64,000 nt of DNA from Candidatus Daviesbacteria bacterium. Lineage in GTDB: Bacteria; Patescibacteriota; Microgenomatia; Daviesbacterales; UBA10151. Numbering within the stretch: position 1 is the stretch's first letter; every line of letters begins with the position of its first letter. This document shows positions 1 to 37,732 of the stretch, in pieces. The stretch spans positions 514,619 to 578,618 of the forward strand of contig CP066688.1 in the NCBI GenBank assembly GCA_016432425.1. Direction: 5' to 3'. The position numbers and the translations under genes are program-made. The notes beneath the pieces are model-generated. The model was given only the letters and a program-made list of their open reading frames with translations, made no database searches and had not been told where the DNA came from.

Positions 1-1047
1 CAAAGTCCCCAAAATCCCCAGATATTCATTAAACAAGGCCTTGAAGCGGATGTTCCATAAATTGGTCTGGTTTAGCTCAATGGGTTTATAAATAGTGAAA
101 TTAAACAGGGTAGTGGCCGGGCCGCTGCCCCAAAAAGGGCTGTCCCGGAAGCTGGAGGCAGCGATTTTCCAGGAGGGAATAAAGGGCAGTTGCACTTCCC
201 GGGGGAAGTTTTGGGCCTGTTTGCGCAAGGGACTGTTGGTATTAATGTTTGGTAAAAATGAAACTGCCGCCACCAGGGTTACTAACGCCAAAGGCACCAA
301 CAGATAGGGGTAAAACCGGCGGGCCCCGCTGCGGTGGAGGGTTAAAGTCAGCAGTATGGCCACTCCTGCGCCAATATAGGTGGCCCAGACCCCGGTTAAA
401 GCAATCACCATGCTAAATAAAGTTAAGACTGCCGCAGAGAGAGTTTTGTTAATATGGGTGCTGGTAGACAATATATTGTTTAACAAAAACGGCAGCAGCA
501 GCACCAAAACAGCGGTGGTGGAAAAACTGGAGCCGGTGGGAGTAAAGTTTAGTCCTTGGGCAAAGTTGAAAGGTAAAATTTTCACTCCCAGAAAAGTGAG
601 CAGGCTCATGGTGGCCAGGATGATGCCGGAACCCAATAGAGTATTTAAAATACTGCCATAATCGTTTTGTTGCAGGTTATGGACCAGCAAAAAATAAAGT
701 AGGATTAAAGCCCCCCAAGCAGCTAAAGTGCCGTTAACTTGGGGTAAATTGCCGATTGAGGTGCTGACGGAAGAGCTCAGTAAAGTAGAAACAATGGCCA
801 CTACCAGTAAAACCAGTAGGGGTAAGCTCAAAGGGGTAATTTTTAAGATTACTTTGCCTTCCGAGAGGTTTTTTAAGGCAGATAGGATAAGTAGCACTGC
901 CAGAAATACCATCAACCCTAAAAACTTGGGGGTGTCAAAAAACTCAGTGGTCTGGTTGGCAAATAAAAATAGGGTAGACAAAATCAGCAAGAGTGTACCA
1001 AATCTTTGCACTACTGAGAGGGTTTGGCTAATAGTATTAGTATTCAT
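1..1047 (-). CDS. Polytopic membrane protein, possibly O-antigen ligase (Wzy/WaaL)-like; partial, runs off the window start.
   Basis: Hand translation of the minus strand gives an uninterrupted ORF from ATG (complement of 1045-1047) to position 1. It starts MNTNTISQTLSVVQRFGTLLLILSTLFLF and has many hydrophobic helices. The N-terminus resembles the O-antigen-ligase-like ORF at 60794..62962. The + strand ORFs at 95..1051 are antisense artefacts in a single frame with stops. Confidence 0.5.
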   Translation of the reverse strand, partial: MNTNTISQTLSVVQRFGTLLLILSTLFLFANQTTEFFDTPKFLGLMVFLAVLLILSALKNLSEGKVILKITPLSLPLLVLLVVAIVSTLLSSSVSTSIGNLPQVNGTLAAWGALILLYFLLVHNLQQNDYGSILNTLLGSGIILATMSLLTFLGVKILPFNFAQGLNFTPTGSSFSTTAVLVLLLPFLLNNILSTSTHINKTLSAAVLTLFSMVIALTGVWATYIGAGVAILLTLTLHRSGARRFYPYLLVPLALVTLVAAVSFLPNINTNSPLRKQAQNFPREVQLPFIPSWKIAASSFRDSPFWGSGPATTLFNFTIYKPIELNQTNLWNIRFKALFNEYLGILGTL

Positions 1048-1148: not shown

Positions 1149-1730
1149 TCAACTATTTCTCGCTTTCAGACGTTTTTTAAAAAGATTTTCTGTAAAACCG
1201 CCTTCACTAATAAAAGCTTTTTCTAAAGCCTGGAGTTGGCGATCAAGTAAGTAGTTGGCCTGGTGAATTAAGGTGAGGAGTAAATTCCCAGCTTTCTCTG
1301 GGCGCGACAGATAGGTCTTATAAGTCTGATAGGTCGTATCTGTCCGATAGGACAGCGCCCGAAGTTCCTTTGCTTCAGGGCTATCTTTGTCCCAGATGGG
1401 TAAAGACCGTTGTCTTAAAAAATCCTCGTAGTCAATGAGCAGCTCTTCTAAAGAAGCCCTGGCCACTCCTACCAGTTTAATTTCTGTTTTTTTAGAAGTT
1501 GCAGAGGCTTGGGATCCTTCGGCAATGTTTTGTCTGCCGGACCTGGCCGCCTGCACCATTTGGTCAGTGGTTCTAGAACGGGGGTTAATATACAATCGGA
1601 CAAATTCGACAGTTAGGTCATATATGAGAGTGGTGGTTTGGTAAGAGTGGAGAGTCCGGTAACCACCATGCCCTTGTTTTTTATTAGTCGTATCGGTCTG
1701 ATATGTCATATTGGTCTTATTGGCTTTCAT
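1149..1730 (-). CDS. Four-helix-bundle protein (23S rRNA intervening-sequence protein family, TIGR02436-like) with a C-terminal extension.
   Basis: Family signature ...QNIAEGSQAS..SKK..I....ARASLEEL... Overlaps the giant gene's stop by 14 nt. The true start may be the internal Met (MTYQTDTT). Confidence 0.55.
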   Translation of the reverse strand: MKANKTNMTYQTDTTNKKQGHGGYRTLHSYQTTTLIYDLTVEFVRLYINPRSRTTDQMVQAARSGRQNIAEGSQASATSKKTEIKLVGVARASLEELLIDYEDFLRQRSLPIWDKDSPEAKELRALSYRTDTTYQTYKTYLSRPEKAGNLLLTLIHQANYLLDRQLQALEKAFISEGGFTENLFKKRLKARNS

Positions 1731-4700
1731 TTATTATAAACCAGTCAAAGTTAATGTCAGAAGCGGTAGTGAGGGGGACAGAGACAGTAAAACTCTGGTT
1801 TGCTGTCTTTGATAGGACTGATAATGACTGATCTGTCAGATTAGTTGCAGTTACCAACACCCTGGAGTTTAACTTGATTAGGGGAGTAGCAATATCTACA
1901 GATTTAGTTCCGGCCGGAATTTTACCTGTTCCCACAGAGGCTCCGGCTACTGCCTGGTATTCTTTAGCCGATACAGTTTGAGCTGTTAAAATACCTTCCT
2001 TATTTATAGTGACCTTACCATTAAAGATATCTACTAAACTGGCTAGTGGTGAATTTTGAATATACAAAATTCCATTTGTCAAATTAGTCAAATTGGTCTC
2101 ATCAGACCAATAAGAGTTAATGGAGTTTCCGGTAATGGCCAGTGTTCCATCCACTGTGAAATCACCGGCTACTAAGGTATTCCCTAAGGTAGTATGACCT
2201 AAAGATTTAAAGCTGTTTTGAATTTCTGCATCATAGGCAGTTAATTTACCGGAAAAAGTAGCCTCGGAAGTTACTTTAAGATTGGCCAAAGTGGCTGAAC
2301 CAGTGGCCAGCAAAGTATCCGGTGGAGTCAGGTCCAGGCATTCCACCCCCGAGGTGTAATCGCATTTTTTCACCTCGGGGGTGTTTTTAGCTAGCTGGGC
2401 TGAGAGGGAAGCTATTTGGTCGGCTAAGGATTTGGTAGTGGCAGATTGGGTGGCAATGGTAGTTTGCAGATCTGCCAGGGCTCCGGACTGGGTGGCCACC
2501 TTGGCTTCCAGGTTTTGCAGGGACCTGGCCACATCAATACCAAAGCTGATACCTCCATTGATAGAGGTGGCAGATTCATAGGCCAGAACAGAATCCTGAG
2601 CCGGAGGAGTGACATTAAAGTTATAATTTAGCACCAGTTTATCTGCTTTAACACTTGGCATAATTAAGTTGCCTTGATCATCTACAGATAAGGAAGAGAG
2701 GAAATCTCCGGGATCAGCCCAGGAAACATTAACAAAAGTCATAATCTTGCCCTGGCAATTCACCTCGGGGGAGTCAGAGCCCACCCCCGAGGTGTTACAA
2801 CTGAATGCTTCCAGTGCCTTCCCCACAGTTGGGCCGGGACGGGTGGCTTTCATAGCCACACCCGGAGTGGAGGAGGAAGTCAGATAATCTCCCACCTCAA
2901 TGGGGCCATTTTCTGAGGAAACCTTGGTAGGTACTCTTCCTGCCAAAGCTAACATGACAGGCTTGGCTGTTTTTCCTTGCAGGTCCGGGGCTTCCTCATC
3001 CCCTAAAACCAGCCCAGGCTTGGTAGTCATAATGCCCAAAACTTTACCATCATAAGCCTTATCAGATTTCTTAAAACCAATACCCGGTAAATCCGGATCA
3101 GCCACCACCACATCAGCTGCCTCCAGGCTCATATCCAAAGAATAATAAACCTCTGCCAAATCAGCCCCAGTTCCACCGGTCACTGTCCAAACTATCATTT
3201 CACCCCTACCCCCAGCCGCACCAGAACCACCCGTATTAGTGCCTCCACCTCCACCTCCACCTCCACCTCCAGGCACACCACTTGCACCTCCAGCCCCACC
3301 AGTACCGGAATCCTGTGCTCCACCCCCACCCCCACCACTTCCACCTCTGAGAGTACCAGCGCTGCCAGCACCTCCGGCACCGCCATTAGTAGTACCGGCA
3401 GTACCTCCTCCGCCAGACGAATAAGAGTTGCCGCTACCACCTGCTCCACCAGCAGTTTCGGTATTGGAGCTATTAAGTCCACCACCACCCCCACCACCTG
3501 CGCCTCCCCAGCGGGAGCTACCACCTGCAACACCATCACCTCCTGCTCCACCTCCACCTCCACCTCCTCCTCCTCCAAAGTCAGCGCTTCCACCTCCACC
3601 AGGACCACCACTCCCACCACTTGCTCCAGCACTGCCGGTGACACTTGCACCACTTGTTGCACCCCCATCATTAGTTCCACCTCCACCACCGCCTGGAGTA
3701 CCATTCCCTATACAACAGTCTCCACCTTGGGAACCACCAGTACCACCTTTACCACCTAAAGCAGTAAACCAACTACTGCCAAAGGTGGTATCCCCCCCAT
3801 TACCCCCAGTACCGCCATTACTGCTTGATCCAGCAGTCCCTGCAGTCCCAGCTGTTCCGATGCTTACTGTTTCGGTTGATCCGACAGATGCAGCGTTAAA
3901 TATTCCCCTCTCAAAGTGGCCACCTCCTCCACCCCCACCACCATTTCGTCTGGTTCCGGCAGCTGCTCCTGCTCCACCCCCCCCTCCACCACCTGCACCG
4001 ATAGCTTGCACAACTACTAATATTGCTCCACTTGGTTTGGTATAAGTACCATTAGCAGTGAAGGTTTGCACGCTGGCTCCGGCATCAGTGCCGCAGGCCA
4101 AGACTCCGGAGGAGTTAGTGTCAATAGTGTTGCAGGAAACCAGTCCGGAAAAAGTAATGGTGCCGGAGGAGGTAATACCGGTCAGGCCCGAGGCAACACC
4201 GGCCCCTGTGACATCCCAGGTATTGCTGTTGATGACGACGTTATCACCGTTGTCCCCTAAATTAACAACACCGTTAGCGGTCAAGGTGCCGTTGGCGGTA
4301 ATCGTACCGGAAGCAGTCAGGGCGGCTGCGGTGATTGTGCCGGTAAGTGTTGGTGATGCGCTCATAACCACGTTGCCTGTTCCGGTAATGGCATTGGAAA
4401 CTAAATTCTTGGATGCATCTGTAAAAACAGCCTGGGAAGCAGTCAGACCGGAGAAGTTAATAGTGCCGGAGGAGGTAATACCGGTGGCGCCGGTGATGGC
4501 TCCGGCCCCGCTAATATCAATGGAGCCGGAGTTTAGGATATTGCCCAAGGTGCCGGTAATTAAGATACCGTCTGTGATGGTGCCTGCGGTTTCTGCAATC
4601 TGTATGGCATTGGTGAGGGTGCCGGCCCCTGTTTGTTCTATCAGCAGCCCATTGGTAACTGTTTCATTAATATCCCGGTTATCTATATGCTGCATGGTTT

Positions 4701-7700
4701 CCAAGGTGCCTGTGGTTAACGAGTCATTTAAGTTGGCTATGACAAAAGCTCTTTGGGTGCTGGCATCTGTGGTGGCATCATTGGTGAAAGTGATAGTTAA
4801 ACCGTCAAAAGCAGCAGCAGTGGCTGCCGTATTCCAATCAAGAGTCTGGACTGTTTCTGCCATGGCTATTGCCCCATTGCCTGTTGGGTCGCCAATGGTG
4901 TTCCAGGTGGTTCCTCCTCCGCCAAAGCTGGCCCAGGTATTGGTATCAGTGCAGCCTTTGTAGGCATTGTCAAAATCATTAAAATAGATATCACCCACGC
5001 TGCAGCTGGCCGGGTCTCCGGTGTCTGTTTTGCCTGCTGAAACATTAACAAAAGAATAAGTTCCCTGGTCTTTTAAGGCCAGCATGGCATTGGTGCCGTC
5101 ATTAAAAGTCAAAGTCCCGGCATTGGCAAAAGAGAGAATAGGGGTGGAGTCGGCAAAGTTAATATCCGTGTCCCAGGTGGTGCCGATAGTTAAGGCAGTG
5201 TCAGTCCCATTGGAGGTGGTAATGTTGTCAATCTTAATGGCGTTGATAGTGCCGCCGGCAGTGGTGGTGGCGGGAGGGGTAATGAGCAGGCCGTTTAAAG
5301 TGCCGGCCCCTACTGCAGTCATGGAAGCAGAGAGCATATTTTCTGTGCCTCCGGTAGTGATGGTGCCGTTTGATACTAATACTCCTGAGGCAGTGATGGT
5401 GCCGCCAGCTGACTGGGTAATATTAGGCAGCTGGATATTGGCTCCTCTCCAGGCAAAAGAGCCGGCTGTAGCATTGGTAATGGCTCCGGTGGTACCTAAA
5501 TTAAAGCCGGTATAGACTGTATCATTGGAAGTAGTGGAGGCAACCGGCAACTGGAGATCGTATCCGGTGATATTTTGGCCGGCAGCCGGGGTAGTGAGGT
5601 TGGTATTGAGATTAAGAGACATGCCTGTAATGGTGGCTGCTCCCTGGGTGGTGGCTCCTCCAAAGTCGGCATTGACCAGGGTGCCCGAGGTCCAGGCGGT
5701 TTCTAAGGTAAAGTCCAAATATGTGCCGGTGGTTTGAGGGTCAATGGTGACGGCGCCGGTTGCTCCGGCCACATCAAAGTAGGTCAGATCAATGTTGGCG
5801 GTGGTACCGATAATATTGTTGTCGCCGATATTTAAGGAGTTGGTGTAGTCGGTGTCTGTTATGGTGATTGCGGTGGTTACTGCCGCGTCCGGGCTGAACG
5901 TCATGGCTCCGGTTGCGGTTAACTGCACATTCTGGGCGGTGATAATTAAATCTTCGCCTGCCGCGTCTCCGCCTGAAGCGTTAAGAGTAAGCGTTCCTGA
6001 CGTGGTGGTGGAAATGGAGAGGTCTCCAGATGTTGAGTTAATGCTCCTGGTCCCTGCCCCGGCAATTTCAATGGCATCCCCTGTGCCGGCATTCTCTACA
6101 TGAAGAACGTCTCCCGAGGAGGTTGAGTAGTTCTGGTCAACCACCAGGACATTACCGGTATGGGTTAGGGTTCCTGTAGTTTGTGTAGAAGTATCGGAAA
6201 TTGATACCAGTGCTCCTGAAACTGTTAAGGTAGAGGCAAAAAGGGAGTTGGTGGTGACTGACCTGCTTATATCTAATACTTGTCCCGAGATTGCGGGGGT
6301 AGTTACTGCTGTGGAGTAGGTAGGAGAGAAGGAGATGTTGGCAGTATCAGCAGATAAGGTGGTGTCGGTGGCAGCGGTTGCTGATTGGGCCACATTCAAA
6401 AGCACCCCCGAGTCAATGGCATTGCTAGTTGAGGTAATATCCAAACCCTTGCCGGTGGTTAAGGCGTCAACCGAGAGAGTCAGAGCCGTCCCGCTGGAGA
6501 TACTGTCTGTGGTTATATCAATGGCATTAACAGTGGCTGCTCCACTGTTTATATCAAAGGTGGTGGCTACCCCGGTATTACCCAGAGTAATGGCATCAGC
6601 ATTGGTGGCACCGGTGCCGATATTGATGGTATCGCCAGCAGTACCGGTGCCTAAATTAATAGTTTTGGTGGTATTGGCAGTAAACAGGTTGCCGGTGGTG
6701 GTCGAGGAACCGGCCACCGGTAGGTCTAAGGTTACAGAGGTGGTTGTATCAGATGTTGATATATTGAGATAGTTATCTGTGCCTTGCTGAATATCCAGAG
6801 CATCAGCTAAATTATCAGGAATATTGCCGGTGATGCCGGCATTAGAGGTGGCATTAATGGTGACTCCGTCATCACCTGTGATGGTTAACAGGCCATTTGA
6901 GGTAGACCAGGTGGAGGCATTGTTAGCAGTTAGGGTAAGAGCTTGGGCTGCTCCGGCAGCCACAGTTAAAGCCCCGCCGGCAGGACCGGTAATGGTGGCA
7001 GCCCCATCTGCATCCACAAAAGTAATATCTCCCACACTACTAAACTGGATGGAATCTGTACCGTTACCTATTTCTAAAGGTGCAGATGGGGTAGCGTCCC
7101 CAATGCCCACATTACCATTTTCCACAATCAGCCCATAATTGGCAGTAGTAGCCCCGGAAGCTGAAAAATATCCGGCTACATTGGTGCCTGATGTGGCATT
7201 GGTATTGGTAACTGCAGAATATATGCCATAAGCTGTATGGGCCAGTTGGGCATTGGCTCCGGATCGGGCCAGATTTAATAACTTTGATGTTCCTGATGCT
7301 CCTCCTGCAGTTGAGGTTGAAGAGACATCCACAGCAGTACCGGTTGAGAGGGCATCAGCGGAAATGATCAAAGCTGTACCTGTTGAGATTGAGTCAGCCA
7401 GATAGGACAAAGGATTGGTTGTTGTAGCTGTGGTGTTAATGGTAGTGGTCTCATCAATATCCAAAGTATTATCCAAATCATCAAAATCTATACAGTCAGT
7501 ACAGTTGAAGGCTGTCACATCAGTGGCTGTCAGGGTGGTAGCCCCGCCCAGAGTTAAGGTATCTGTGGAGTGAGTTAAAGTCACATCACCGTTGTTAAAA
7601 TTAATTACTCCACCACTGGCTAAAAACAGATCAGACCACATCAGGGCAGTAGTGCCTAAAGCATTACCATCAGAGGTGGAGGGGGAAAGGGAGGTGGCAT

Positions 7701-10700
7701 CAAGTGTTAGCTCATTAGTCCCCCCGATACCAATCTCTAAAGAGGTGGTGGCATTAATATCGCTGTCCCAGCCAGTTCCTATTGACAAAGCAGTGGTTGC
7801 TGAGTTGGTGGTAGTGGTGTTGCCAATGTTTACTGCAGTAAAAGTATCTGCATCAGTAGATTCTGTCCAGGTAATGTTTAACCCGGTATTTGCATCTGCC
7901 CCGGTATCTGCAGTTGAAGTTACTGCTATGGTCAATCCATTGATGGCATTTACTGATGTGCCTGCAATATTTGCCACATCTCCTGCATTAGCCCCAGTCT
8001 TGGATATATTGGCAGTGTCTCCGCCGTCCAAGGTGACATTAAAGTCTCCACCTGATAGATCTAAATCACCATCGTTAACTAAAATATCTCCAGCTGTAAT
8101 GTATAGGGCATCTGTTCCATCAGCAGAACCTGCTATAACCAGGTTTCCCTCTGTTGGGCTAGAGTCCCCAATGCCCACATTACCATTTAGGAAAGTGGCA
8201 GCATAAGTAGTATCAGAGGCATTGGCAGTGGATACATCAACATATAATCCATAAACAGTGTTGGCCAAGGATCCTGCATCTGTTAAACCAATATCAAAAA
8301 CCCTTAAGGTATTGGCATTGGTTGAGGGGGAGTTAGTGATGTTTATATCCATTGCAGACTGTGTCCCGCCGGCAGTTGGTGTATAAGTGGCTGTTAAATC
8401 AAAGATGTCCCCGGTGGTGTGGGCAGCAGAGGTTGCCAGTACCAAAAGCGGTTGGGTAGTTAAAGAGGTAGTGCCTGTTAAGTTAATTGAAGAGTTAAAA
8501 TCCAGCTCATCATTGGTGGAGTCCCATAAAATGACAGCATTGGGGGTGGTGTCGCCGCGCTCAAACGCCAGCGAAGCATCTTCGGTATCGAGGGTGTTGT
8601 TATCAGAGTTGATGGTCCAGGAGCTGGAGGTGGTGGAACCACCTGTCACTGTTCCTGCTAGATTGGTCGCATCAACTGTATCAAACCAACCGGTGGCAAA
8701 GCGGGTGCCGGAGGAGCCAACATCAGTCCCTGCGCCTTGCGCTAAGATATCAGAGCCTGTTGACATTTGGATGTTACCCCCAAATTGGGCAGCCCAGTTG
8801 GTGGTGGCACCTGAGGCTGTGAAATAGCCGCCGATATTGGTGCTGGTAGTGCCGGTATTGGTGACAGCAGAGTAGAGCCCATAAGCTGTGTGGGTGGCAT
8901 TGGCATTAGCACCGGAGCGGGCCAGATTAAGTAAAATTGAGGATGAAGAACCTGTCCCTGCGGTGGAGCTTGATGCCAGATTAACTAACCCGTTGGTGGT
9001 GCCATTGCCGGTCCAGGTATTGCCGGTGGTGGCAATATCCAAAAGCCTGCCTGTGGTGACAGCATCAGTGGTCAGATACAGACCGGTTCCTGAAGTGATG
9101 GCGGTGGCATCAAAGACAAAACCAGAGGTAGTGGTGGCACCTGTTGCCACATTGGAGGTAAAAGTTTGAGAGCCGGTGCCGGAGGTTAAAGCCAGGGAAC
9201 TGGTAGAGGCATTGTTGCCGATGGTGATAGTGTCTGCTCCTGTTCCACCAGTACCAATATTGATGGTATCTGCCCCTGTTGCACCGGTGCCGGCCATGTT
9301 GATGGTGTGAGTTCCGGAACCGGAACCTAGGTTGATGGCAGTGTAGTTGCCTGAACCATTACCCAGATCCAGCAGAGTGGTGGCAGCTCCACCCAAAGAG
9401 AGAGTGGTGGCTGTGGCGTTAAAGATGGTGGCAGTTGTTGTAGTTGTTGTTATATCAGCAGAAGTTGCGCCATTAACAGCCAGGTCTCCGGTGATGGTAG
9501 TATCAGCATCGAATGAATACCCGGAAGAGGCCCCGGCAAAAGCCAGGGTATCTGTGGAATGGGTTAAAGTTACATCCCCATTATTAAAGTTAACTACTCC
9601 ACCACTGGCTAAAAACAGATCAGACCACATCAGGGCAGTAGTGCCCAGGGCATTCCCGTCAGAGGTGGAGGGGGAAAGGGCAGTGGCAGTTAAGGTCAGT
9701 TCATTACTCCCCCCAATCCCCAGGTAAAGGGTGCCGGCGCTGTTTAGGGATAAATCACCTGAGGTGGCTGTGGAGATAGTTAAGTTCCCAGAGGTATTAG
9801 TCCAGGCAGAGGTGCCGCCGGAAGCCAAAGTTAGCGCTCCGGTGGAATTGCCCAGGGTGGTGGTGGAACCGGCTCCGGTAGAATAGGTATGAGCTCCTGA
9901 TGCTCCGGTGCCTAAGGTGGTATTACCGGAGGAGGTCAGGGTGGTGAAAGCCCCGGTCCCGGCAGTAGTGGCCCCAAGGGAAACAAAGTTGGCAGCCCCG
10001 GCCCCGGTAATATTCCAGTTGTCATCATTTAAAGCCAGGGAAGAGGAGGCAGTGGTGGTACCGATGGTAATGGAGTTGGCCACCGCTCCTGTGCCAATGG
10101 CGATAGTATCTGCTGTAGTTATTCCGGTGCCAATGTTAATGGTATCAGCAGCAGTACCGGTGCCTAAATTAATGGTCTTGGTGGTATTGGCAGTAAAAAG
10201 ATTACCGGTGGTGGTAGAGGAGCCGGCTACCGGTAAATCAATGGTTACAGAGGTAGTAGTATCAGAAGTAGATATATTGATATAGTTATCAGTGCCTTGC
10301 TGGATATCCAAGGCAGGAGAAGTGTTATCTGGAAGATTGATGGTGGTAGTACCACTGATGGTTAAGGTATCAGAGGTGGCATTGCCCAAGGTGGTGTTGC
10401 TGTCAACTGTTAAATTGCCGGTAGTGGACAGGTCTCCGCCGGTTGATAAAGTTGTACCTTGGACTGTTAAAGATTGGGCAATGGTGACTGAACCGGAAAA
10501 ATCCCCGTCTTTTCCCCACAGTTTATTCCAGCGGGTAGAAGATGAGCCCAGATTATAGAAACTGTCACTGAGCGGATTAAGGTTAGTCCCGACTGACCCG
10601 CTTAAATTAACAGTGCCGTTGAAAGTGGCTGCATCACTGATAGTCATCTTGCCGGCAAAATTGGCATTACCTTCTTTGTCAATGGAGGAGTTAGACAAAT

Positions 10701-12210
10701 AAAGGGATTGGAAGCGGCTCCCGGTGGTGCCAATGGAACCGGTTTTGGTTAAATAGGGGTAGATGTCACCGCCGGCTGTTACCCAAACAGAACCGTCACC
10801 GATGGCTGATGAGGCCCCGTAAGGCCTAACCTGGGCAAAACCGGAAGCCCCCACTTCTGTCACTGACACATCATCTAAATAAACTACTCCCGAAGATAAA
10901 TTCGGGAACTCTATAACCGGGAACCAGTTTTCCCCTTGGCCCGGGCCGGGGGAGTTCATATCAAACTCCAGGAGCTGCCAGCCATTTTGCAGGTTAGTCA
11001 AATCTGAGCTGGTTAACTGTTTAGTAGTAGTGCCGGTTCGTTGCTTAGACACCGGGTCCCAGAAGCTAATCTGGAGATCAAAGGCGCTACTTTGATATGC
11101 TTTGAGGTAGAAAGCTAGATGATATGGACGAGATTCCCCGGTGACAGTATCCGGGTTTAAGATGCCTAAGTTGGAGGTGCCTCCCACAAACTTTAAGCTG
11201 TTATAGCCGGAGCGGGCCAGTTCATTGGTCAGAAATGTATTGGCAGAGGTGGAATTTCCTAAATAAATCCAGCGGTTAGGCAGACCGTTGTTGTTAGCTT
11301 CAAAAGAAGAGTTGGGCAAGAGGTTGGGGGAGGAGGTATCCGAAAGATTTGAGCTTAGAGCTTGGAGGCTAACTTGAGCATTCTTTTTGTCATCCTGATC
11401 CGCCAGCTGGCGGAGAAGAATTTCTTCTTCAGCCTCAACTAATCTTCGGCTGATCTCATTGATCCTGTCAGTTTGCACATTAACTACCTGGGCTACATCC
11501 GGAAAGCCTAAATCTTGGGCAGTTTGGGGGGAAGTGACCTGGATAGCCTTTTGGGAAAGAAAATTAAAGGGAGAGAGAATTTTACTTCCCACAGCTTGTA
11601 ACAGACCCAGGGTATCACTGGCTGCTCCCAGCACTTCACCCTTTTGGGCAGTACTGGCAGAGGCTGCAGACGCCAGGGCAATCTTTTTAGTAGTTTCAGG
11701 AAACTTTAAATAACCAACAGTTAAAACGGCAGTCAGGATAAAAGTGATGGCCCCGGCAGTAAGGATTGATTTAGCGATCCAAGAGGGCACTGTTGCGGGA
11801 GTTTCAGGTTGGCTTAAATTTTGCGCCAGAGACTCCAGTAAAAGCTGGTTTTGTTGTTGGGGGTTAAATGAGAGAGGGGTTAATCGTTTGACATCTTTGA
11901 CACTGTAAGACCGCTCACCGGTAGAGGACCTTTGGGCAGGGAACTTACCTTCTTTATCCCAGCGCCTTAAGGTTTTAATGGACACCCCTAATTTATCAGC
12001 TGCTTGTGAAATAGGGATTTGAGTCCTGCCTTTGGCGGGATGCTTGTGAAATTTGAGGAGGTTTGGTAGGTAAAACAGCCTGGTCCCGCCCGGAGTTTTG
12101 ATGGAGGAAATCTTGCCGGCTTTTTCCCAGCGGCGGAGGGTGTCAATGGAGACTCCTAAAACCTTGGCAGCTTGACCAATTTTGATGTAGTTGTCAGACG
12201 GATTTTGCAT
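1717..12210 (-). CDS. Giant (3,497 aa) membrane-anchored surface protein. Two N-terminal excisionase/MerR-type HTH domains, one TM helix, a CBM4/9-like carbohydrate-binding module, a long Thr/Gly/Ser-rich beta-helix/tail-fiber-like repeat region, a poly-Gly tract, a coiled coil and C-terminal globular domains.
   Basis: Single uninterrupted ORF. HTH1 KIGQAAKVLGVSIDTLRRWEKAGKI and HTH2 ISQAADKLGVSIKTLRRWDKEGKF. TM WIAKSILTAGAITFILTAVLTVGYL. CBM-like NLLPNSSFEANNNGLPNRW...YLDDVSVTEV. Repeats of GTGxxADTINIGTG type. Internal duplication ALSPSTSDGNALGTTALMWSDLFLASGGVxNFNNGDVTLTHSTDTL. TFTANGTYTKPSGAILVVVQAIGAGGGGGGG glycine-rich motif. Confidence 0.8.
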   Translation of the reverse strand: MQNPSDNYIKIGQAAKVLGVSIDTLRRWEKAGKISSIKTPGGTRLFYLPNLLKFHKHPAKGRTQIPISQAADKLGVSIKTLRRWDKEGKFPAQRSSTGERSYSVKDVKRLTPLSFNPQQQNQLLLESLAQNLSQPETPATVPSWIAKSILTAGAITFILTAVLTVGYLKFPETTKKIALASAASASTAQKGEVLGAASDTLGLLQAVGSKILSPFNFLSQKAIQVTSPQTAQDLGFPDVAQVVNVQTDRINEISRRLVEAEEEILLRQLADQDDKKNAQVSLQALSSNLSDTSSPNLLPNSSFEANNNGLPNRWIYLGNSTSANTFLTNELARSGYNSLKFVGGTSNLGILNPDTVTGESRPYHLAFYLKAYQSSAFDLQISFWDPVSKQRTGTTTKQLTSSDLTNLQNGWQLLEFDMNSPGPGQGENWFPVIEFPNLSSGVVYLDDVSVTEVGASGFAQVRPYGASSAIGDGSVWVTAGGDIYPYLTKTGSIGTTGSRFQSLYLSNSSIDKEGNANFAGKMTISDAATFNGTVNLSGSVGTNLNPLSDSFYNLGSSSTRWNKLWGKDGDFSGSVTIAQSLTVQGTTLSTGGDLSTTGNLTVDSNTTLGNATSDTLTISGTTTINLPDNTSPALDIQQGTDNYINISTSDTTTSVTIDLPVAGSSTTTGNLFTANTTKTINLGTGTAADTINIGTGITTADTIAIGTGAVANSITIGTTTASSSLALNDDNWNITGAGAANFVSLGATTAGTGAFTTLTSSGNTTLGTGASGAHTYSTGAGSTTTLGNSTGALTLASGGTSAWTNTSGNLTISTATSGDLSLNSAGTLYLGIGGSNELTLTATALSPSTSDGNALGTTALMWSDLFLASGGVVNFNNGDVTLTHSTDTLAFAGASSGYSFDADTTITGDLAVNGATSADITTTTTTATIFNATATTLSLGGAATTLLDLGNGSGNYTAINLGSGSGTHTINMAGTGATGADTINIGTGGTGADTITIGNNASTSSLALTSGTGSQTFTSNVATGATTTSGFVFDATAITSGTGLYLTTDAVTTGRLLDIATTGNTWTGNGTTNGLVNLASSSTAGTGSSSSILLNLARSGANANATHTAYGLYSAVTNTGTTSTNIGGYFTASGATTNWAAQFGGNIQMSTGSDILAQGAGTDVGSSGTRFATGWFDTVDATNLAGTVTGGSTTSSSWTINSDNNTLDTEDASLAFERGDTTPNAVILWDSTNDELDFNSSINLTGTTSLTTQPLLVLATSAAHTTGDIFDLTATYTPTAGGTQSAMDINITNSPSTNANTLRVFDIGLTDAGSLANTVYGLYVDVSTANASDTTYAATFLNGNVGIGDSSPTEGNLVIAGSADGTDALYITAGDILVNDGDLDLSGGDFNVTLDGGDTANISKTGANAGDVANIAGTSVNAINGLTIAVTSTADTGADANTGLNITWTESTDADTFTAVNIGNTTTTNSATTALSIGTGWDSDINATTSLEIGIGGTNELTLDATSLSPSTSDGNALGTTALMWSDLFLASGGVINFNNGDVTLTHSTDTLTLGGATTLTATDVTAFNCTDCIDFDDLDNTLDIDETTTINTTATTTNPLSYLADSISTGTALIISADALSTGTAVDVSSTSTAGGASGTSKLLNLARSGANAQLAHTAYGIYSAVTNTNATSGTNVAGYFSASGATTANYGLIVENGNVGIGDATPSAPLEIGNGTDSIQFSSVGDITFVDADGAATITGPAGGALTVAAGAAQALTLTANNASTWSTSNGLLTITGDDGVTINATSNAGITGNIPDNLADALDIQQGTDNYLNISTSDTTTSVTLDLPVAGSSTTTGNLFTANTTKTINLGTGTAGDTINIGTGATNADAITLGNTGVATTFDINSGAATVNAIDITTDSISSGTALTLSVDALTTGKGLDITSTSNAIDSGVLLNVAQSATAATDTTLSADTANISFSPTYSTAVTTPAISGQVLDISRSVTTNSLFASTLTVSGALVSISDTSTQTTGTLTHTGNVLVVDQNYSTSSGDVLHVENAGTGDAIEIAGAGTRSINSTSGDLSISTTTSGTLTLNASGGDAAGEDLIITAQNVQLTATGAMTFSPDAAVTTAITITDTDYTNSLNIGDNNIIGTTANIDLTYFDVAGATGAVTIDPQTTGTYLDFTLETAWTSGTLVNADFGGATTQGAATITGMSLNLNTNLTTPAAGQNITGYDLQLPVASTTSNDTVYTGFNLGTTGAITNATAGSFAWRGANIQLPNITQSAGGTITASGVLVSNGTITTGGTENMLSASMTAVGAGTLNGLLITPPATTTAGGTINAIKIDNITTSNGTDTALTIGTTWDTDINFADSTPILSFANAGTLTFNDGTNAMLALKDQGTYSFVNVSAGKTDTGDPASCSVGDIYFNDFDNAYKGCTDTNTWASFGGGGTTWNTIGDPTGNGAIAMAETVQTLDWNTAATAAAFDGLTITFTNDATTDASTQRAFVIANLNDSLTTGTLETMQHIDNRDINETVTNGLLIEQTGAGTLTNAIQIAETAGTITDGILITGTLGNILNSGSIDISGAGAITGATGITSSGTINFSGLTASQAVFTDASKNLVSNAITGTGNVVMSASPTLTGTITAAALTASGTITANGTLTANGVVNLGDNGDNVVINSNTWDVTGAGVASGLTGITSSGTITFSGLVSCNTIDTNSSGVLACGTDAGASVQTFTANGTYTKPSGAILVVVQAIGAGGGGGGGAGAAAGTRRNGGGGGGGGHFERGIFNAASVGSTETVSIGTAGTAGTAGSSSNGGTGGNGGDTTFGSSWFTALGGKGGTGGSQGGDCCIGNGTPGGGGGGTNDGGATSGASVTGSAGASGGSGGPGGGGSADFGGGGGGGGGGAGGDGVAGGSSRWGGAGGGGGGGLNSSNTETAGGAGGSGNSYSSGGGGTAGTTNGGAGGAGSAGTLRGGSGGGGGGAQDSGTGGAGGASGVPGGGGGGGGGGTNTGGSGAAGGRGEMIVWTVTGGTGADLAEVYYSLDMSLEAADVVVADPDLPGIGFKKSDKAYDGKVLGIMTTKPGLVLGDEEAPDLQGKTAKPVMLALAGRVPTKVSSENGPIEVGDYLTSSSTPGVAMKATRPGPTVGKALEAFSCNTSGVGSDSPEVNCQGKIMTFVNVSWADPGDFLSSLSVDDQGNLIMPSVKADKLVLNYNFNVTPPAQDSVLAYESATSINGGISFGIDVARSLQNLEAKVATQSGALADLQTTIATQSATTKSLADQIASLSAQLAKNTPEVKKCDYTSGVECLDLTPPDTLLATGSATLANLKVTSEATFSGKLTAYDAEIQNSFKSLGHTTLGNTLVAGDFTVDGTLAITGNSINSYWSDETNLTNLTNGILYIQNSPLASLVDIFNGKVTINKEGILTAQTVSAKEYQAVAGASVGTGKIPAGTKSVDIATPLIKLNSRVLVTATNLTDQSLSVLSKTANQSFTVSVPLTTASDINFDWFIINESQ

Positions 12211-12616
12211 TTAAGCTTGCATACATCTACTCTGCCTAGATTTGGGTATGCATCCAAATTCCGTCTGTAGATTCAGCATATCCATATATAATAAGATTTG
12301 TCAAGCCTTTAATTGTATAAGTATGGGATATGAAAAATATTTCCACAAAATCTTTTGTTTAAGCTAAATGATGCCTATGCCTGGTGGTTACTATAAGATT
12401 GAAAATTTGTTATTGATAATGTGCATCAATCTACAATCAACTGTATCAATTTTTTTAACGCACAGGCAAGAATTAGGGTTAAGGGATTAGTAGTAACTAT
12501 TACGGGAAGGTCAAATATCTCTCAGAATATATCAAAAGATGTCCACTAAGTAGTTAATTTATATATGTGAAAAAACGTGTGAAAATGTAACATCATTCTG
12601 AGTATTCTTAATTCTT

Positions 12617-12650: not shown

Positions 12651-12738
12651 GTATGATCACATTGGCAGATTTGCAATTTGAGATCTCAGGTTTGAGATGT
12701 TACAATCAAGCTTATAAGGGGAACCCTCTAATTACATT

Positions 12739-12756
12739 ATGAAGGGGACCTTCTAA
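12739..12756 (+). promoter_or_regulatory. Leader mini-ORF ATG AAG GGG ACC TTC TAA (MKGTF*) with embedded hairpin GAAGG-gga-CCTTC, 7 nt upstream of the leuS ATG. Part of a 27-bp tandem duplication (ctctaattacattatgaaggggacct x2).
   Basis: Direct reading. The identical peptide/hairpin unit recurs at 51601 and 49315 (minus strand). Confidence 0.45.
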
Positions 12757-12763
12757 TTACATT

Positions 12764-15331
12764 ATGAAAAAATATATTCCCCATGACATTGAACCTAAAT
12801 GGCAGCAAAAGTGGCAGAAGGATGCTCTCTACAGCGTTGACTTGGATAAATCTAAAAACCCCTATTATTTGTTAGTGGAATTTACTTATCCTTCCGGGGA
12901 TTTGCATATTGGTCATTGGTTTGCCTTTGCTGTGCCTGATATTTTAGGCAGGATGAAGAGAATGCAGGGGTTTACAGTGTTTTACCCTAATGGCTTTGAT
13001 GCTTTTGGGTTGCCCGCAGAAAATGCTGCCATCCAACGGGGTATTCATCCCAGAGATTGGACTTTGTCAAATATAGAAAATATGAAAAAGCAATTTTCCT
13101 TAATGGGGACCATTCATGATTGGGGAAATAGCGTCATTACTTGTCTATCAAACTATTACAAATGGAATCAATGGATTTTCTTAAAGATGTTGGAGAAAGG
13201 TTTGGCTTACAAAGGTAAAACTTTATCTAACTGGTGCCAGCATTGTCAAACTGTTTTGGCCAATGAAAATGTAGAAGCTGGTAATTGTTGGAGATGTCAT
13301 AATCCGGTAGTGCAAAAAGAGGTAGAACAATGGTTTTTAAAGATTACAGATTATGTCCAGAGGCTCCTTTGGGGCGAAGGTGGTAATGGGGTAGATTGGC
13401 CAAAAGCTCTGATGGAGGGGCAGAATAATTGGATTGGCAAAAGTCAGGGACAAGTGATTAAATTTGATGGCATTGAAGTGTTTACGACCCGTCAGGACAC
13501 GATTTTTGGGGCTACCTTTATCGTTATCAGTCCAGAACATCCACTGCTAAGTAAATTTGTTACATTTGAAAATAAAGAAAATGTCCAAAAATATTTAAAA
13601 TCCGTCCAGAAAAAGTCGGAACTGGAAAGAAAAGAAGAAAAAGTCAAATCTGGCGTTTTTACAGGTTCATTTGTGAGTAATCCCTTGACTGGTGAGCAGA
13701 TTCCGATTTGGATTGCTGATTATGTTTTGATGGGATATGGAACAGGGGCAATAATGGGAGTACCGGCCCATGACGCGCGGGACTTTGAATTTGCCAAAAA
13801 GTACGATTTACCTATAAAAACTGTTATCCAACCAGCGGGTCATACCGACTCACCGTCACCCGCTAATCAGGTACCAGATCAAGCCTACGTTTTGACGAAG
13901 TCAAAAGGCAAGGTTCTGCCAAAGGCAGGTTCTTATGATTTGACGAAGTCAAAAGGCAAGGTTCTGCCAAAGGCAGGTTCTTATGAAGGGGAGGGAGTTA
14001 TGGTAAACAGTGGTGAATATGATGGTATGAGTAGTAATGAAGCTCGGGAAAAGATATCAAACTATCTTGAAGAACATCATTTAGGTCAGAGAAAAGTTAA
14101 TTACCACCTCCATGACTGGTCCATCTCCCGTCAAAGGTACTGGGGTACCCCCATCCCCATTATCTACTGTGAAAAATGCGGCAGCGTACCGGTACCGGAA
14201 AAAGATCTGCCGGTGGAACTACCTTACGAAGTAGATTATCATCCTACCGGTAAACCGCCTTTGGCCACTAATGAGGCTTGGCTTAATGTGAAATGCCCTC
14301 GCTGTCTTGGTTCAGCCAAGAGGGACACTGAAACCATGGATACTTTTGTAGATTCATCCTGGTATTTCTTGCGTTATTTAGATAATAAAAATGACCAGGA
14401 AATTGTTAGTTCAAAACGACTCCGAACTTGGATGCCGATAGACATATATTTTGGCGGGGCAGAGCACACGCTGGGGCATACCTTATATTCCCGGTTTTTT
14501 GTGAAATTCCTAAAAGACATTGGAGTAGTGGATTTTGAGGAATATGCCAAAAAGAGAGTTAACCATGGAGTGATTTTGGGCTCGGATGGCTCCCGGATGA
14601 GTAAATCCCGGGGTAATGTGGTTAACCCAGATGAGCAGGTTCGCCAGTTCGGAGCAGATGCAGTCAGGTTATATTTAGCTTTTATCGGTCCTTATGATAT
14701 CGTTTCTCCTTGGAATCCATCAGCTATTAATGGTGTTTACCATTTTTTGCAAAGAGTTTGGTCGCTTTACGACAAAATAGCCTCGATCGGCAACAAGTTG
14801 TCGTCAGAAGACTTACGAATAATGCACAAAACTATCAAAAAAGTGACAGAAGACCTGGAGGATATTAAGTTTAATACGGCTGTGGCAGTTTTGATGGAGT
14901 GGTTAAACTACTTAAGTCGTAAGGAAAACGTGACCAGGGAAGAGTATAAAACTTATCTACTGCTCTTGGCCCCCTTTGCCCCTCATATTACGGAAGAACT
15001 ATGGTCCTTCGACAAAGTTTACACTGAGCGAACCTGTGGTGAGTGTAGTCGAACCAGTCGAAGTGCTCAGGATCAACAAATCTGGTCTATCCATCAGCAG
15101 TCTTGGCCTATCTTTGATAAACAATATTTAGAGGAAGCAGAAGTGGCTGTGATTGTCCAGGTCAATGGGCGGCTGCGGGATATTTTGATGATACAAAAAG
15201 ATATATTAAATGATAAAGAAGCTGTAGAAAAATTAGCTCGGGCAAGCCAAAAGGTGGCTAAATACTTAGATGGGCAAACTGTTAAAAAGGTGATTCACGT
15301 CTCCGGGAAACTAATCAATTTTGTTGTTTAG
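12764..15331 (+). CDS. leuS: Leucyl-tRNA synthetase.
   Basis: 855 aa. Class I HIGH (HIGH-like HIGHWF) and KMSKS (RMSKSRGN) motifs and LeuRS-typical editing/anticodon-binding regions. Contains a 70-nt in-frame repeat insertion at 15006..15075. Confidence 0.95.
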   Translation: MKKYIPHDIEPKWQQKWQKDALYSVDLDKSKNPYYLLVEFTYPSGDLHIGHWFAFAVPDILGRMKRMQGFTVFYPNGFDAFGLPAENAAIQRGIHPRDWTLSNIENMKKQFSLMGTIHDWGNSVITCLSNYYKWNQWIFLKMLEKGLAYKGKTLSNWCQHCQTVLANENVEAGNCWRCHNPVVQKEVEQWFLKITDYVQRLLWGEGGNGVDWPKALMEGQNNWIGKSQGQVIKFDGIEVFTTRQDTIFGATFIVISPEHPLLSKFVTFENKENVQKYLKSVQKKSELERKEEKVKSGVFTGSFVSNPLTGEQIPIWIADYVLMGYGTGAIMGVPAHDARDFEFAKKYDLPIKTVIQPAGHTDSPSPANQVPDQAYVLTKSKGKVLPKAGSYDLTKSKGKVLPKAGSYEGEGVMVNSGEYDGMSSNEAREKISNYLEEHHLGQRKVNYHLHDWSISRQRYWGTPIPIIYCEKCGSVPVPEKDLPVELPYEVDYHPTGKPPLATNEAWLNVKCPRCLGSAKRDTETMDTFVDSSWYFLRYLDNKNDQEIVSSKRLRTWMPIDIYFGGAEHTLGHTLYSRFFVKFLKDIGVVDFEEYAKKRVNHGVILGSDGSRMSKSRGNVVNPDEQVRQFGADAVRLYLAFIGPYDIVSPWNPSAINGVYHFLQRVWSLYDKIASIGNKLSSEDLRIMHKTIKKVTEDLEDIKFNTAVAVLMEWLNYLSRKENVTREEYKTYLLLLAPFAPHITEELWSFDKVYTERTCGECSRTSRSAQDQQIWSIHQQSWPIFDKQYLEEAEVAVIVQVNGRLRDILMIQKDILNDKEAVEKLARASQKVAKYLDGQTVKKVIHVSGKLINFVV
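15006..15075 (+). mobile_element. 70-nt interspersed repeat copy A, inserted in-frame inside leuS. 100% identical to copy B at 26865..26934 (opposite orientation).
   Basis: ccttcgacaaagtttacactgagcgaacctgtggtgagtgtagtcgaaccagtcgaagtgctcaggatca. It encodes ~20 extra residues (FDKVYTERTCGECSRTSRSAQDQ) between the conserved EELW and SIHQQSWP LeuRS segments. The termini are inverted (cttcgac...gtcgaag). Confidence 0.7.
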
Positions 15332-28281: not shown

Positions 28282-28518
28282 TTAATAAGAGCTTGAAGAG
28301 CCGGAGTCGCTGGAGCCGGATTTTTGGGTAATTCCTAACAGCCACAAAACTGCCTCTTTTTTGTAACGACGGTCACCTCGAGAATTAATCCTAATTGCAG
28401 GCAACTTGCCTCTTTTGCCCCAACGCTTAATGGTTAAAGGGGAGACACGCAGGACTTCTGCTACTTCTTTAACTGTTAATAAATCCGGAAGATTTTCGAG
28501 TGATATTTTGTCTGCCAC
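28282..28518 (-). CDS. Small excisionase/MerR-type HTH DNA-binding protein.
   Basis: LTVKEVAEVLRVSPLTIKRWGKRGKLPAIRI. Same HTH type as the N-terminus of the giant protein. The C-terminal tail is Ser/Gly-rich. Confidence 0.65.
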   Translation of the reverse strand: MADKISLENLPDLLTVKEVAEVLRVSPLTIKRWGKRGKLPAIRINSRGDRRYKKEAVLWLLGITQKSGSSDSGSSSSY

Positions 28519-37595: not shown

Positions 37596-37732
37596 TTTAA
37601 GCTTAAAATAAACTTTTATTATTTGTCAAGTGCAGAGATTTTACAGATTTCCAAGATTATCCACTATTTGAATGGAGAGAATCCCAAGGTCAACCCCACC
37701 GCAAGAGTAATTTTCCACTTTATTATTATTTA

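Follow-up and report, generated by a model that had tools for sequence, protein, structure and literature searches.

We have analyzed a single giant gene in a 64,000-nucleotide stretch of DNA (hereafter the window; all positions are counted from its first letter) from Candidatus Daviesbacteria, a groundwater bacterium of the candidate phyla radiation (CPR/Patescibacteria). The gene, which we call the fibre gene, lies at 1717..12210 on the minus strand, as do all features of its product given below, and encodes a protein of 3,497 amino acids (aa) in one continuous, stop-free frame of 10.5 kb, in agreement with an earlier note on this DNA. The exact protein is on record as QQG43090.1, from a contig of 820,589 bp, under the annotation 'helix-turn-helix domain-containing protein [Candidatus Daviesbacteria bacterium]'. 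It begins with a tandem pair of winged helix-turn-helix (wHTH) domains, continues through one transmembrane (TM) helix, and ends with about 3,330 residues rich in Thr, Gly, Ser and Ala (T 18-22%, G 9-17%). This fusion of helix-turn-helix (HTH) domains, TM helix and fibre is genuine and is conserved in a large CPR family. The G+C content of the gene is 0.48-0.52, against 0.38-0.43 in its surroundings, in line with what the Thr, Gly and Ala content of the product would lead one to expect.

The first wHTH, at aa 8-52 (12055..12189), is of the MerR/excisionase/BldC type and the second, at aa 64-110 (11881..12021), of the MerR/RacA type. Pfam matches, each with two stretches (aa 10-46 and 66-110), comprise MerR (E=3.3e-24; 84.9 bits against a cut-off of 28.2), MerR_1 (3.3e-16; 59.6 against 21.6) and HTH_17 (1.6e-9; 38.4 against 27), all above the curated cut-offs; we rest the first unit on MerR and HTH_17 and the second on MerR_1. 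The NCBIfam excisionase domain TIGR01764, matched in the first unit, scores 37.4 bits against a cut-off of 28.8. AlphaFold2 (AF2) models both units as beta-helix-helix-wing-helix with a predicted local confidence (pLDDT) above 90. The two excisionase/MerR-type HTHs proposed in the earlier note are therefore present, and they pass the profile searches for DNA-binding HTH families on which that claim had been staked. Matches of the HTH region below the NCBIfam cut-offs include BldC (NF033787; E=7e-12, 44.9 bits, cut-off 77 bits), IS607 transposase, HspR and RacA (22.7 against 170 bits for the RacA models), while ZntR, CueR, MerR, SoxR and the other equivalogs all score far under their cut-offs. 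The top solved relative is the DNA-binding domain of RacA (5I41; E=2.7e-6), followed by MerR regulators, CarH-like proteins, TipA, BldC (E~3e-3) and TnrA, and Foldseek superposes one HTH unit on the RacA-DNA complex with 39% identity over 49 aa and an rmsd of 1.8 Å. All of the solved relatives (RacA, BldC, MerR regulators, TnrA, CarH) are DNA binders. In the family alignment basic residues of the recognition helix and wing are conserved, namely R26, R27, K30, K33, R44 and a GGTR wing.

The long antiparallel coiled-coil helix through which canonical MerR proteins dimerise is absent from the AF2 model, where HTH1 leads into HTH2, and HTH2 into a helix of 17 residues that a linker joins to the TM helix; the Pfam MerR_1 matches likewise span only positions 1-46 of the 69-position model. 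Neither Pfam nor composition reveals an effector-binding domain C-terminal to the HTHs, a place taken here by the TM helix and ectodomain. Because both the dimerisation helix and the effector domain are missing, the fibre protein is not a canonical MerR regulator. Its HTH module is of the minimal BldC/RacA/excisionase kind, tandemly duplicated. BldC also lacks dimerisation and effector domains and forms head-to-tail multimers on direct repeats (PMC5859096), which makes it the natural model for two linked HTHs. A standalone MerR-like HTH of 78 aa is encoded 16 kb from the fibre gene (28282..28518, minus strand); it is of the same type as the HTHs of the fibre head, as had been noted before (phmmer E=3e-6), and has orthologues at 82-94% identity in loci L021, L042 and L024. 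There is also a widespread Patescibacteria family of 239-aa proteins (P0060, P0069 and about 60 similar ones) that carry an N-terminal 'LGVSIDTLRRWDE' HTH on a soluble, conserved domain of about 190 aa, with no TM segment; this HTH variant is thus a common CPR module that occurs in several contexts.

Relatives with the same N-terminal fusion were found many times over. Using the N-terminal 291 aa as query we obtained 118 relatives, of which the closest are Daviesbacteria proteins with HTH(s), a TM segment, a common juxtamembrane motif and fibre-like repeats; most of the 118 are partial, because contigs break. The C-terminal module as query gave 107 relatives. Short complete proteins (P0122, P0124, P0126 and P0128, of 785-852 aa, and those of loci L011 and L039, the range extending to 930 aa) have both an HTH-HTH-TM start and the same C-terminal module, which is 43-45% identical to that of the window protein over 97% of its length. 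Handles with L denote loci; in the best 80, taken with 10-kb flanks, many genes are longer than 3,700 aa and extend past the flank, and complete giants with HTH and TM segments are encoded at L033 (3,392 aa), L037 (2,706 aa), L021 (2,261 aa) and L054 (2,054 aa). An exhaustive phmmer search with aa 1-200 against 1.84 billion representatives returned 2,155 matches at E<=1e-3, 370 of them at E<=1e-10. Among the best 150 we examined 26 proteins of 1,122-4,471 aa. Every one has one or two N-terminal wHTHs, 24 of the 26 have exactly one hydrophobic segment by a strict threshold, situated at aa 107-337, and 11 share portions of the C-terminal module. The closest orthologue of full architecture, P0316 (2,240 aa), repeats the whole order of the window protein: two HTHs, TM segment, sandwich region, shaft, glycine-rich domain and distal module. 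Finally, a profile built from a 13-sequence alignment of the distal module finds relatives encoded in at least 551 stretches of the GTDB species genomes. Where the titles of module relatives are informative they name Patescibacteria, with two exceptions, a Nanoarchaeia bin and a bin with the title Pseudomonadales. Many ENA 'binchicken' metagenome-assembled genomes with Patescibacteria-type loci (L001, L002, L006, L008-L010 and others) are titled 'uncultured Gammaproteobacteria bacterium', which looks like a placeholder or mislabel. A literature search of limited reach found no papers that describe or test this CPR family.

The head and the ectodomain of the family are exchangeable. The cassette of one or more wHTHs followed by a TM segment also occurs on small ectodomains, in two proteins of 243 aa each (P0005 and P0007, on contigs of 188 kb and 838 kb), and on an SH3-containing ectodomain (P0038). 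Conversely, the fibre module stands behind another head in L062, where an integrase N-terminal SAM-like domain (aa 14-107, E=1.8e-8) precedes the TM segment. The same SAM-like domain is weakly matched in L061, and L055 has other HTH-like segments before its TM segment. Given these alternative heads in L062, L061 and L055, the combination of a DNA-binding head, a TM segment and a giant fibre seemingly arose more than once. At the other extreme P0226, a protein of 623 aa, has eight tandem wHTHs in four pairs, one TM segment at aa ~494 and a tail of about 110 aa. Hint/intein-like sequences (Pfam Intein_splicing, motif 'NNIVAHNT') lie inside the fibre of P0121/L004, L006 and P0232 (aa ~880-1180); P0232 has a large basic insert between fibre segments, and P0121 is annotated as 'replicative DNA helicase', probably owing to the intein-like element. 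In the P0316 locus (L081) a standalone 71-aa HTH_17/MerR_1 gene (367-582, plus strand) lies 190 bp upstream of the giant gene, and a histidine kinase and a response regulator are encoded downstream of it on the opposite strand.

The TM helix occupies aa 143-169 (11704..11784) and is presumed to be a signal anchor. Its hydrophobic core (aa 144-168; Kyte-Doolittle 1.95) is the sole hydrophobic segment of the protein, no value elsewhere exceeding 1.36, and AF2 models it as a helix with a pLDDT of ~82-85. A single TM segment had been predicted at about aa 150-175; the number was right and the position slightly off. As also predicted, there is no N-terminal signal peptide, since the chain begins with the first HTH. 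Cleavage by signal peptidase after the TM helix was considered and appears unlikely, the nearest AxA motifs being 12-18 residues past the hydrophobic core. The N-terminal domain is folded and basic (net charge +14), and it lacks a signal peptide, which argues that the HTHs are inside. That the ectodomain is outside is suggested by its content of only 0-2% Lys plus Arg, a composition of extracellular type, by homologues of its modules that open with a classical signal peptide or a short anchor (P0133, L056, L073, L079, L035 and L063-65), and by a neighbouring gene of the Wzy_C family (see below). These indirect lines of evidence favour a type II single-pass topology, N-terminus in and C-terminus out, in which the HTHs would be cytoplasmic; the charges next to the TM helix, however, are ambiguous (see below).

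Beyond the membrane the protein would begin with a helical stalk, aa 171-289 (11344..11700), for which AF2 predicts helices at aa 171-187, 200-226 and 239-289. It includes the juxtamembrane motif SPFxxL...I/V..P..AxxLGF that the alignment shows to be common to the Daviesbacteria relatives. The beta-sandwich that follows, aa ~296-455 (10846..11325), resembles carbohydrate-binding modules (CBMs) of the 4/16/22 kind by fold only: the top Foldseek matches are the jelly rolls CBM16, CBM4-2, CBM22 and CBM15, at E~1e-4 and TM-scores of ~0.45, from a weak model with pLDDT 45-76. No Pfam family, CBM_4_9 included, matches aa 291-480 at E<=0.1, so that the CBM4/9-like module of the earlier note is plausible at the level of fold but not of sequence. 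A word-indexed search found no homologues of this region; the later exhaustive phmmer search showed that P0336 (2,301 aa) shares it. The shaft, aa ~460-2690 (4141..10833), is a region of about 2,200 aa rich in Thr, Gly, Ser, Ala and Asn, recognised by composition and self-comparison, in which neither Pfam nor PHROGs has any match. The Thr/Gly repeats of more than 2,000 aa reported before are indeed there, but windowed self-BLAST resolves them into dispersed mosaic duplications (for example, aa 625-716 and 1796-1887 are 79% identical, and aa 819-896 and 1482-1559 77%), and a tandem repeat finder found no tandem array among them.

The shaft gives way to a glycine-rich domain, aa 2714-3001 (3208..4071), with 47% Gly. 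It resembles Bxb1 gp33 and Pfam Gly_rich_2 (PF21722). The block aligns to the 'tail wing brush' protein gp33 of mycobacteriophage Bxb1 (9D93; E=4.7e-4, with a heavy compositional bias of 117 bits), and the alignment takes in the PxGA...GAGGGGG lead-in and the spacing. Pfam has no match to this domain in the window protein; its orthologue P0316 matches Gly_rich_2 weakly. The resemblance to phage structural proteins that had been suspected from the glycine tract is suggested by a biased alignment, though not by Pfam in this protein. Bxb1 gp33 forms a polyproline-II (PPII)/polyglycine helical bundle, like the domain of the Salmonella phage S16 tail-spike (tail-fibre adhesin; PDB 6F45) (PMC13243192), and the glycine-rich block is probably a polyglycine-II/PPII helix bundle as well.

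The last 496 residues (aa 3002-3497) form a distal module with a mean AF2 pLDDT of 69.7. It contains a conserved beta domain, 'ADLAEVY...GDYLTSSSTPGVAMKA', at aa 3016-3170 (2701..3165; modelled at aa 3018-3166 with pLDDT >90), which is related to the phage preneck-appendage/Peptidase_G2 region. A long helix of 53 residues, probably a coiled coil, is modelled at aa 3224-3276 (2383..2541) and has a weak Pfam match of SlyX type. The final part, aa 3290-3497 (1720..2343), comprises a segment 'LTPPD.LLATGSA...' and a terminal beta-sandwich, the latter similar to K1-lyase_C and tailspike C-termini; the sandwich (last 70 aa) is modelled at a pLDDT of ~95, and the stretch between it and the long helix is poorly modelled. 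The coiled coil and C-terminal beta-rich domains anticipated by the earlier note are both accounted for in this model. Foldseek matches of the module in the PDB are weak (best 1.4e-3) and come exclusively from phage structures: the Pam1 and Sf6 tailspikes, K1 lyase, K64-1 depolymerase, the R2 pyocin fibre and capsid decoration proteins. Against the predicted viral structures of BFVD there are 54 matches at E<=1e-3, the best at 2e-10, among them a preneck appendage protein (TM-score 0.62 on the target), K1-lyase_C and tail-fibre proteins. At E<=1, Pfam finds no Peptidase_G2 (PF11962), Peptidase_S74 or K1-lyase_C (PF24146) in aa 3002-3497. Homologues do match these families: Peptidase_G2 in P0133 (4.4e-9) and P0158, K1-lyase_C in P0137 (4.5e-5, under the cut-off) and Peptidase_S74 in some. 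By its predicted structure, then, the distal module is like the C-termini of phage preneck appendages and tailspikes.

The neighbourhood of the fibre gene is a housekeeping one, with leucyl-tRNA synthetase (LeuRS), ComEA, ComEC, arginyl-tRNA synthetase (ArgRS), tRNAs and a giant DUF5667 protein, none of them prophage-like; LeuRS is a frequent upstream neighbour in related loci as well. A prophage origin was rejected on account of the LeuRS, ComEA, ComEC and ArgRS neighbours and the restriction of PHROGs matches to the HTH region. The second giant open reading frame (ORF), at 32508-37595 on the minus strand, encodes 1,695 aa with three DUF5667 repeats and also has a raised G+C content. Downstream of the fibre gene, and overlapping its end by 14 nt, is a gene for a four-helix-bundle protein of 193 aa (1149..1730, minus strand) from the PF05635 family (Avd/23S-rRNA-IVS), which also comes after the fibre gene in 13 or more of the related loci. 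Proteins of this family are often encoded within 23S rRNA, but an rRNA intervening sequence was rejected, Rfam finding no rRNA in the window and only 5 tRNAs. The Avd-like nature of the product also led us to consider a diversity-generating retroelement; this was rejected too, for the 3' end of the fibre gene shares no repeat with the downstream region, the next gene encodes a Wzy_C protein and no reverse transcriptase is present, and the gene order is conserved.

The next gene, which runs off the window edge (1..1047, minus strand), encodes a multi-TM protein of the Wzy_C/O-antigen-ligase type. Among the related loci, at least 27 have a Wzy_C gene close to the fibre gene, in most of them directly downstream and on the same strand. 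The three-gene order of fibre, four-helix-bundle and Wzy_C is kept, the loci concerned being L001-L013, L019, L020, L026-L032, L039, L040 and L080. Enzymes of the Wzy_C family work at the outer face of the membrane. Genes for PglL-type O-oligosaccharyltransferases, which are of the same family as O-antigen ligases, usually adjoin the genes of their substrates (PMC3643930). From this adjacency and the Wzy_C synteny we infer glycosylation or wall linkage of the fibre; they suggest that the Thr/Ser-rich fibre is O-glycosylated or joined to a wall polymer by a dedicated system.

Upstream of the fibre gene, ~65 bp from its start, is a promoter-like TTGACA-18-TATGCT (12275..12304, minus strand), recognised by consensus match only; its -35 element 'TTGACAAATC' recurs upstream of orthologues. 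At the L033 locus a 10-mer, AATCTATGCA, is present three times in 21 kb, each time within 150 bp upstream of the giant gene, where 0.08 copies would be expected. In the window AATCTCTGCA (37631-37640), a copy of this 10-mer with one mismatch, lies 36 bp upstream of the start of the 32508-37595 ORF, and a second, AATCTAGGCA (12233-12242), is placed 23 bp upstream of the fibre gene. A 25-bp tandem duplication (12717-12741 and 12742-12766) spans the ribosome-binding and start-codon region of LeuRS, the upstream copy making a mini-ORF of 5 codons, ATG AAG GGG ACC TTC TAA. It may be a leader or attenuator, or a simple duplication. As an operator array it was rejected, being a duplicated LeuRS start region that is found nowhere else in the window.

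With its DNA-binding domain and TM helix in one chain, the fibre protein belongs to the transmembrane transcription regulators (TTRs), which are defined operationally as polypeptides that have a DNA-binding domain and at least one TM region (PMC10269533). In a census of 50,302 such proteins the single-pass form was the commonest (56%), and MerR, MerR_1 and HTH_17 heads numbered 386, 350 and 151 (PMC10269533). The architecture had been described as unusual for a one-component system. That holds for the giant tail-fibre-like ectodomain and for the expansion of the family in CPR, but the TTR class itself is known and MerR-headed members are already catalogued (PMC10269533). The term 'Patescibacteria' is absent from the main text and supplementary files of the census so far as these are accessible (PMC10269533). 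The census also counts 5,597 proteins (11%) with the RodZ-type domain HTH_25 (PMC10269533), and RodZ is a cytoskeleton linker (PMC9804626); membership in the TTRs is therefore no proof of regulation. RodZ shares with the fibre protein an N-terminal cytoplasmic HTH, a single TM segment and an extracytoplasmic domain, but its HTH is of XRE type and binds MreB and its periplasmic domain is small, whereas the HTH of the fibre protein is MerR-like and duplicated.

The same layout of a cytoplasmic N-terminal DNA-binding domain, single TM segment and extracytoplasmic domain in one chain is seen in the TTRs ToxR, TcpP and CadC. ToxR and CadC, however, have an OmpR-type winged helix and a periplasmic sensor of ~100-250 aa, in place of which we find tandem MerR-like wHTHs and a phage-fibre-like filament of 3,330 aa. 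BldC of Streptomyces (PDB 6AMA/6AMK) is similarly a minimal MerR-like wHTH with neither coiled-coil dimerisation helix nor effector domain; it is a soluble protein of 68 aa with no anchor or ectodomain, while the fibre protein has 3,497 aa and falls under the BldC cut-off. RacA of Bacillus subtilis, the best solved relative of HTH2, ties DNA to a fixed site on the envelope, but it is soluble, reaches the membrane through DivIVA by a C-terminal coiled coil, and has no TM segment or ectodomain. In the RsgI anti-sigma proteins of Clostridium thermocellum a cytoplasmic regulatory head, a single TM segment and an extracellular CBM that senses polysaccharide follow the plan of the fibre protein. Their head, however, works by way of a sigma factor, being an anti-sigma domain and not a DNA-binding HTH, and the ectodomain is small. 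To phage fibres and tailspikes (phi29 gp12 preneck appendage/Peptidase_G2; the C-termini of K1 lyase, Sf6 and Pam1; S16 gp38 and Bxb1 gp33) the distal module and glycine-rich domain are related by fold and weak sequence similarity, and the polarity is the same, with the N-terminus at the anchor and the C-terminus distal. Unlike phage fibres, the fibre protein has its gene among housekeeping genes and not in a prophage, a TM helix in place of a baseplate as its anchor, and PHROGs matches in its HTH region only.

If the TM helix is a signal anchor, as we propose, the HTH pair would be kept in the cytoplasm and the remaining ~3,330 aa exported as a long, probably trimeric, phage-tail-fibre-like filament anchored at its N-terminus. 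Outwards from the membrane this filament would consist of the helical stalk, the CBM-like sandwich, the Thr/Gly-rich shaft (to which the Wzy_C protein encoded nearby probably adds O-glycans), the glycine-rich bundle and the distal module; the last, of preneck-appendage/tailspike type, would drive oligomerisation, bind a target surface, or both. Extrapolated from T4 gp34 (about 70 nm for 1,289 aa), the fibre would measure ~100-200 nm. Held at the membrane, the tandem wHTHs would bind DNA, and probably, like BldC, on direct repeats. It is plausible, as the earlier note held, that the protein links surface contact to transcription or tethers DNA. The explanation that we favour, tentatively and at somewhat less than even chances, is that the HTH pair controls transcription depending on how much fibre is present or on its state, making the protein a giant TTR that perhaps autoregulates its own expensive gene or governs surface genes. 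A constant cytoplasmic head to which different outside domains are joined is a hallmark of signalling proteins, and L033 and L039, two paralogues of a single genome, have unlike recognition helices (VHIDTLRRWE and LSPDTLRNWE), as expected if their specificities are distinct. The clustered copies of AATCTATGCA at L033 are a lead in the same direction, if an anecdotal one. A number of observations weigh against transcriptional control. The passage of a signal along a fibre of more than 3,000 aa to the cytoplasm is hard to explain. The Lys and Arg residues flanking the TM helix (1 on the N side, 3 on the C side) are ambiguous with regard to the positive-inside rule, the sum over 22 family members (53 against 40) leaning slightly towards N-in. 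A search for 9- and 10-mers with one mismatch on both strands, in the 200 bp upstream of about six or seven HTH-bearing family genes, found no shared operator above shuffled sequences, and in the window one-mismatch copies of AATCTATGCA are not enriched (4 against 4.9 expected). The recognition helix is nearly unchanged among many distant family members, which suits a common, generic target (nucleoid DNA, or some conserved protein) no less well than gene-specific regulation. An array of up to eight HTHs before the TM segment, in P0226, resembles the tethering of DNA by avidity more than it does a classical regulator.

Several of these observations are those that speak for a tether, in which the wHTHs would bind the chromosome with low specificity or at dispersed sites and couple the nucleoid to the base of the fibre, perhaps to place DNA where the cell attaches or to make the anchor firmer. 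Such couplings exist elsewhere: RacA links the chromosome to the cell pole and Noc links DNA to the membrane. The kinship of HTH2 to a chromosome-anchoring protein, the near-invariance of the recognition helix in very divergent members, the range of one to eight HTHs per chain (a trimer of the window protein would cluster six, favouring avidity), the want of a conserved operator in the upstream k-mer search, and the integrase SAM-like DNA-binding head that other members carry at the same position all fit this arrangement. Yet the likeness to RacA is that of a generic MerR-like wHTH, the DivIVA-binding C-terminal coiled coil of RacA is absent, the cassette also sits on the 243-aa proteins, where a structural tether makes less sense, and the recognition helices of the paralogues differ; on balance we regard a tether as somewhat unlikely. 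That the HTH pair is instead a protein-interaction or assembly domain, docking a cytoskeletal, secretion or partner protein in the manner of RodZ and MreB, is quite unlikely. The abundance of RodZ-type heads among catalogued TTRs gives the idea some substance, and a candidate partner exists in the co-transcribed four-helix-bundle protein, whose gene shares 14 nt with the end of the fibre gene and accompanies it in the 13 or more loci mentioned above; but the basic residues of recognition helix and wing are conserved, every solved relative binds DNA, and the HTH also exists as standalone copies, both in the window and upstream of the P0316 gene.

A rather small chance may be given to regulated proteolysis, by which the ectodomain would be shed or autoprocessed and an intramembrane cleavage would then free the tandem HTH as a soluble transcription factor, as in systems of the RsgI/anti-sigma/Notch type. 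This would dispense with the need to pass a conformational signal along a long fibre. The conserved juxtamembrane extracytoplasmic motif has an invariant (S/D)-P, the distal module is akin to the autoprocessing domains of phage fibres, with Peptidase_G2 and Peptidase_S74 in homologues, and there are Hint/intein motifs in P0121, L006 and P0232. However, we identified no cleavage site and no linked site-2 protease in the locus, and the window protein itself has no Pfam match to the G2 or S74 families. It is hardly credible, finally, that mis-assembly or sequencing error has joined two genes, one for the HTH-TM start and one for the fibre, or that the ORF is not expressed. Giant repetitive genes do often break or become mis-joined in metagenome assemblies, and many database homologues are partial, but dozens of assemblies show the same fusion independently of one another, short versions without repeats have it too, the 10.5-kb frame is free of stops in an 820-kb genome record, and the start is backed by the homologue alignment and the promoter-like site.

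Going beyond transcriptional control as such, one may imagine CPR cells with a hitherto unrecognised class of organelle-like filaments, derived from phage fibres and reaching ~4,500 aa, whose cytoplasmic arrays of BldC/RacA-type wHTHs hold the cell's own DNA and so link the contact site to the chromosome. In cells of ~200-300 nm, contact or tension might then be passed on to gene expression, or the nucleoid or a transcribing locus might be brought to the place of attachment, where it could serve DNA uptake or transertion, for instance. We consider this picture unlikely.

The CPR/Patescibacteria make up a large share of bacterial diversity, and the prevailing view is that most of them live on other cells, to which they attach; they have few conventional signalling systems. 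How CPR cells sense and hold their hosts is the question on which the fibre family bears. In this family modules of phage tail fibres have apparently been turned into surface structures of the cell, and the Wzy_C synteny predicts a glycosylation system dedicated to the fibres. The soluble N-terminal domain of ~135 aa offers an easy handle for settling DNA binding. Family proteins carry public names such as 'helix-turn-helix domain-containing protein' and 'DNA-binding transcriptional MerR regulator', and if the HTHs should bind no DNA they would be a caution for census-style annotation. If they do, a chain that unites a DNA-binding module with a giant adhesin of phage-fibre character would be the most direct link between surface and genome imaginable in these minimal cells.

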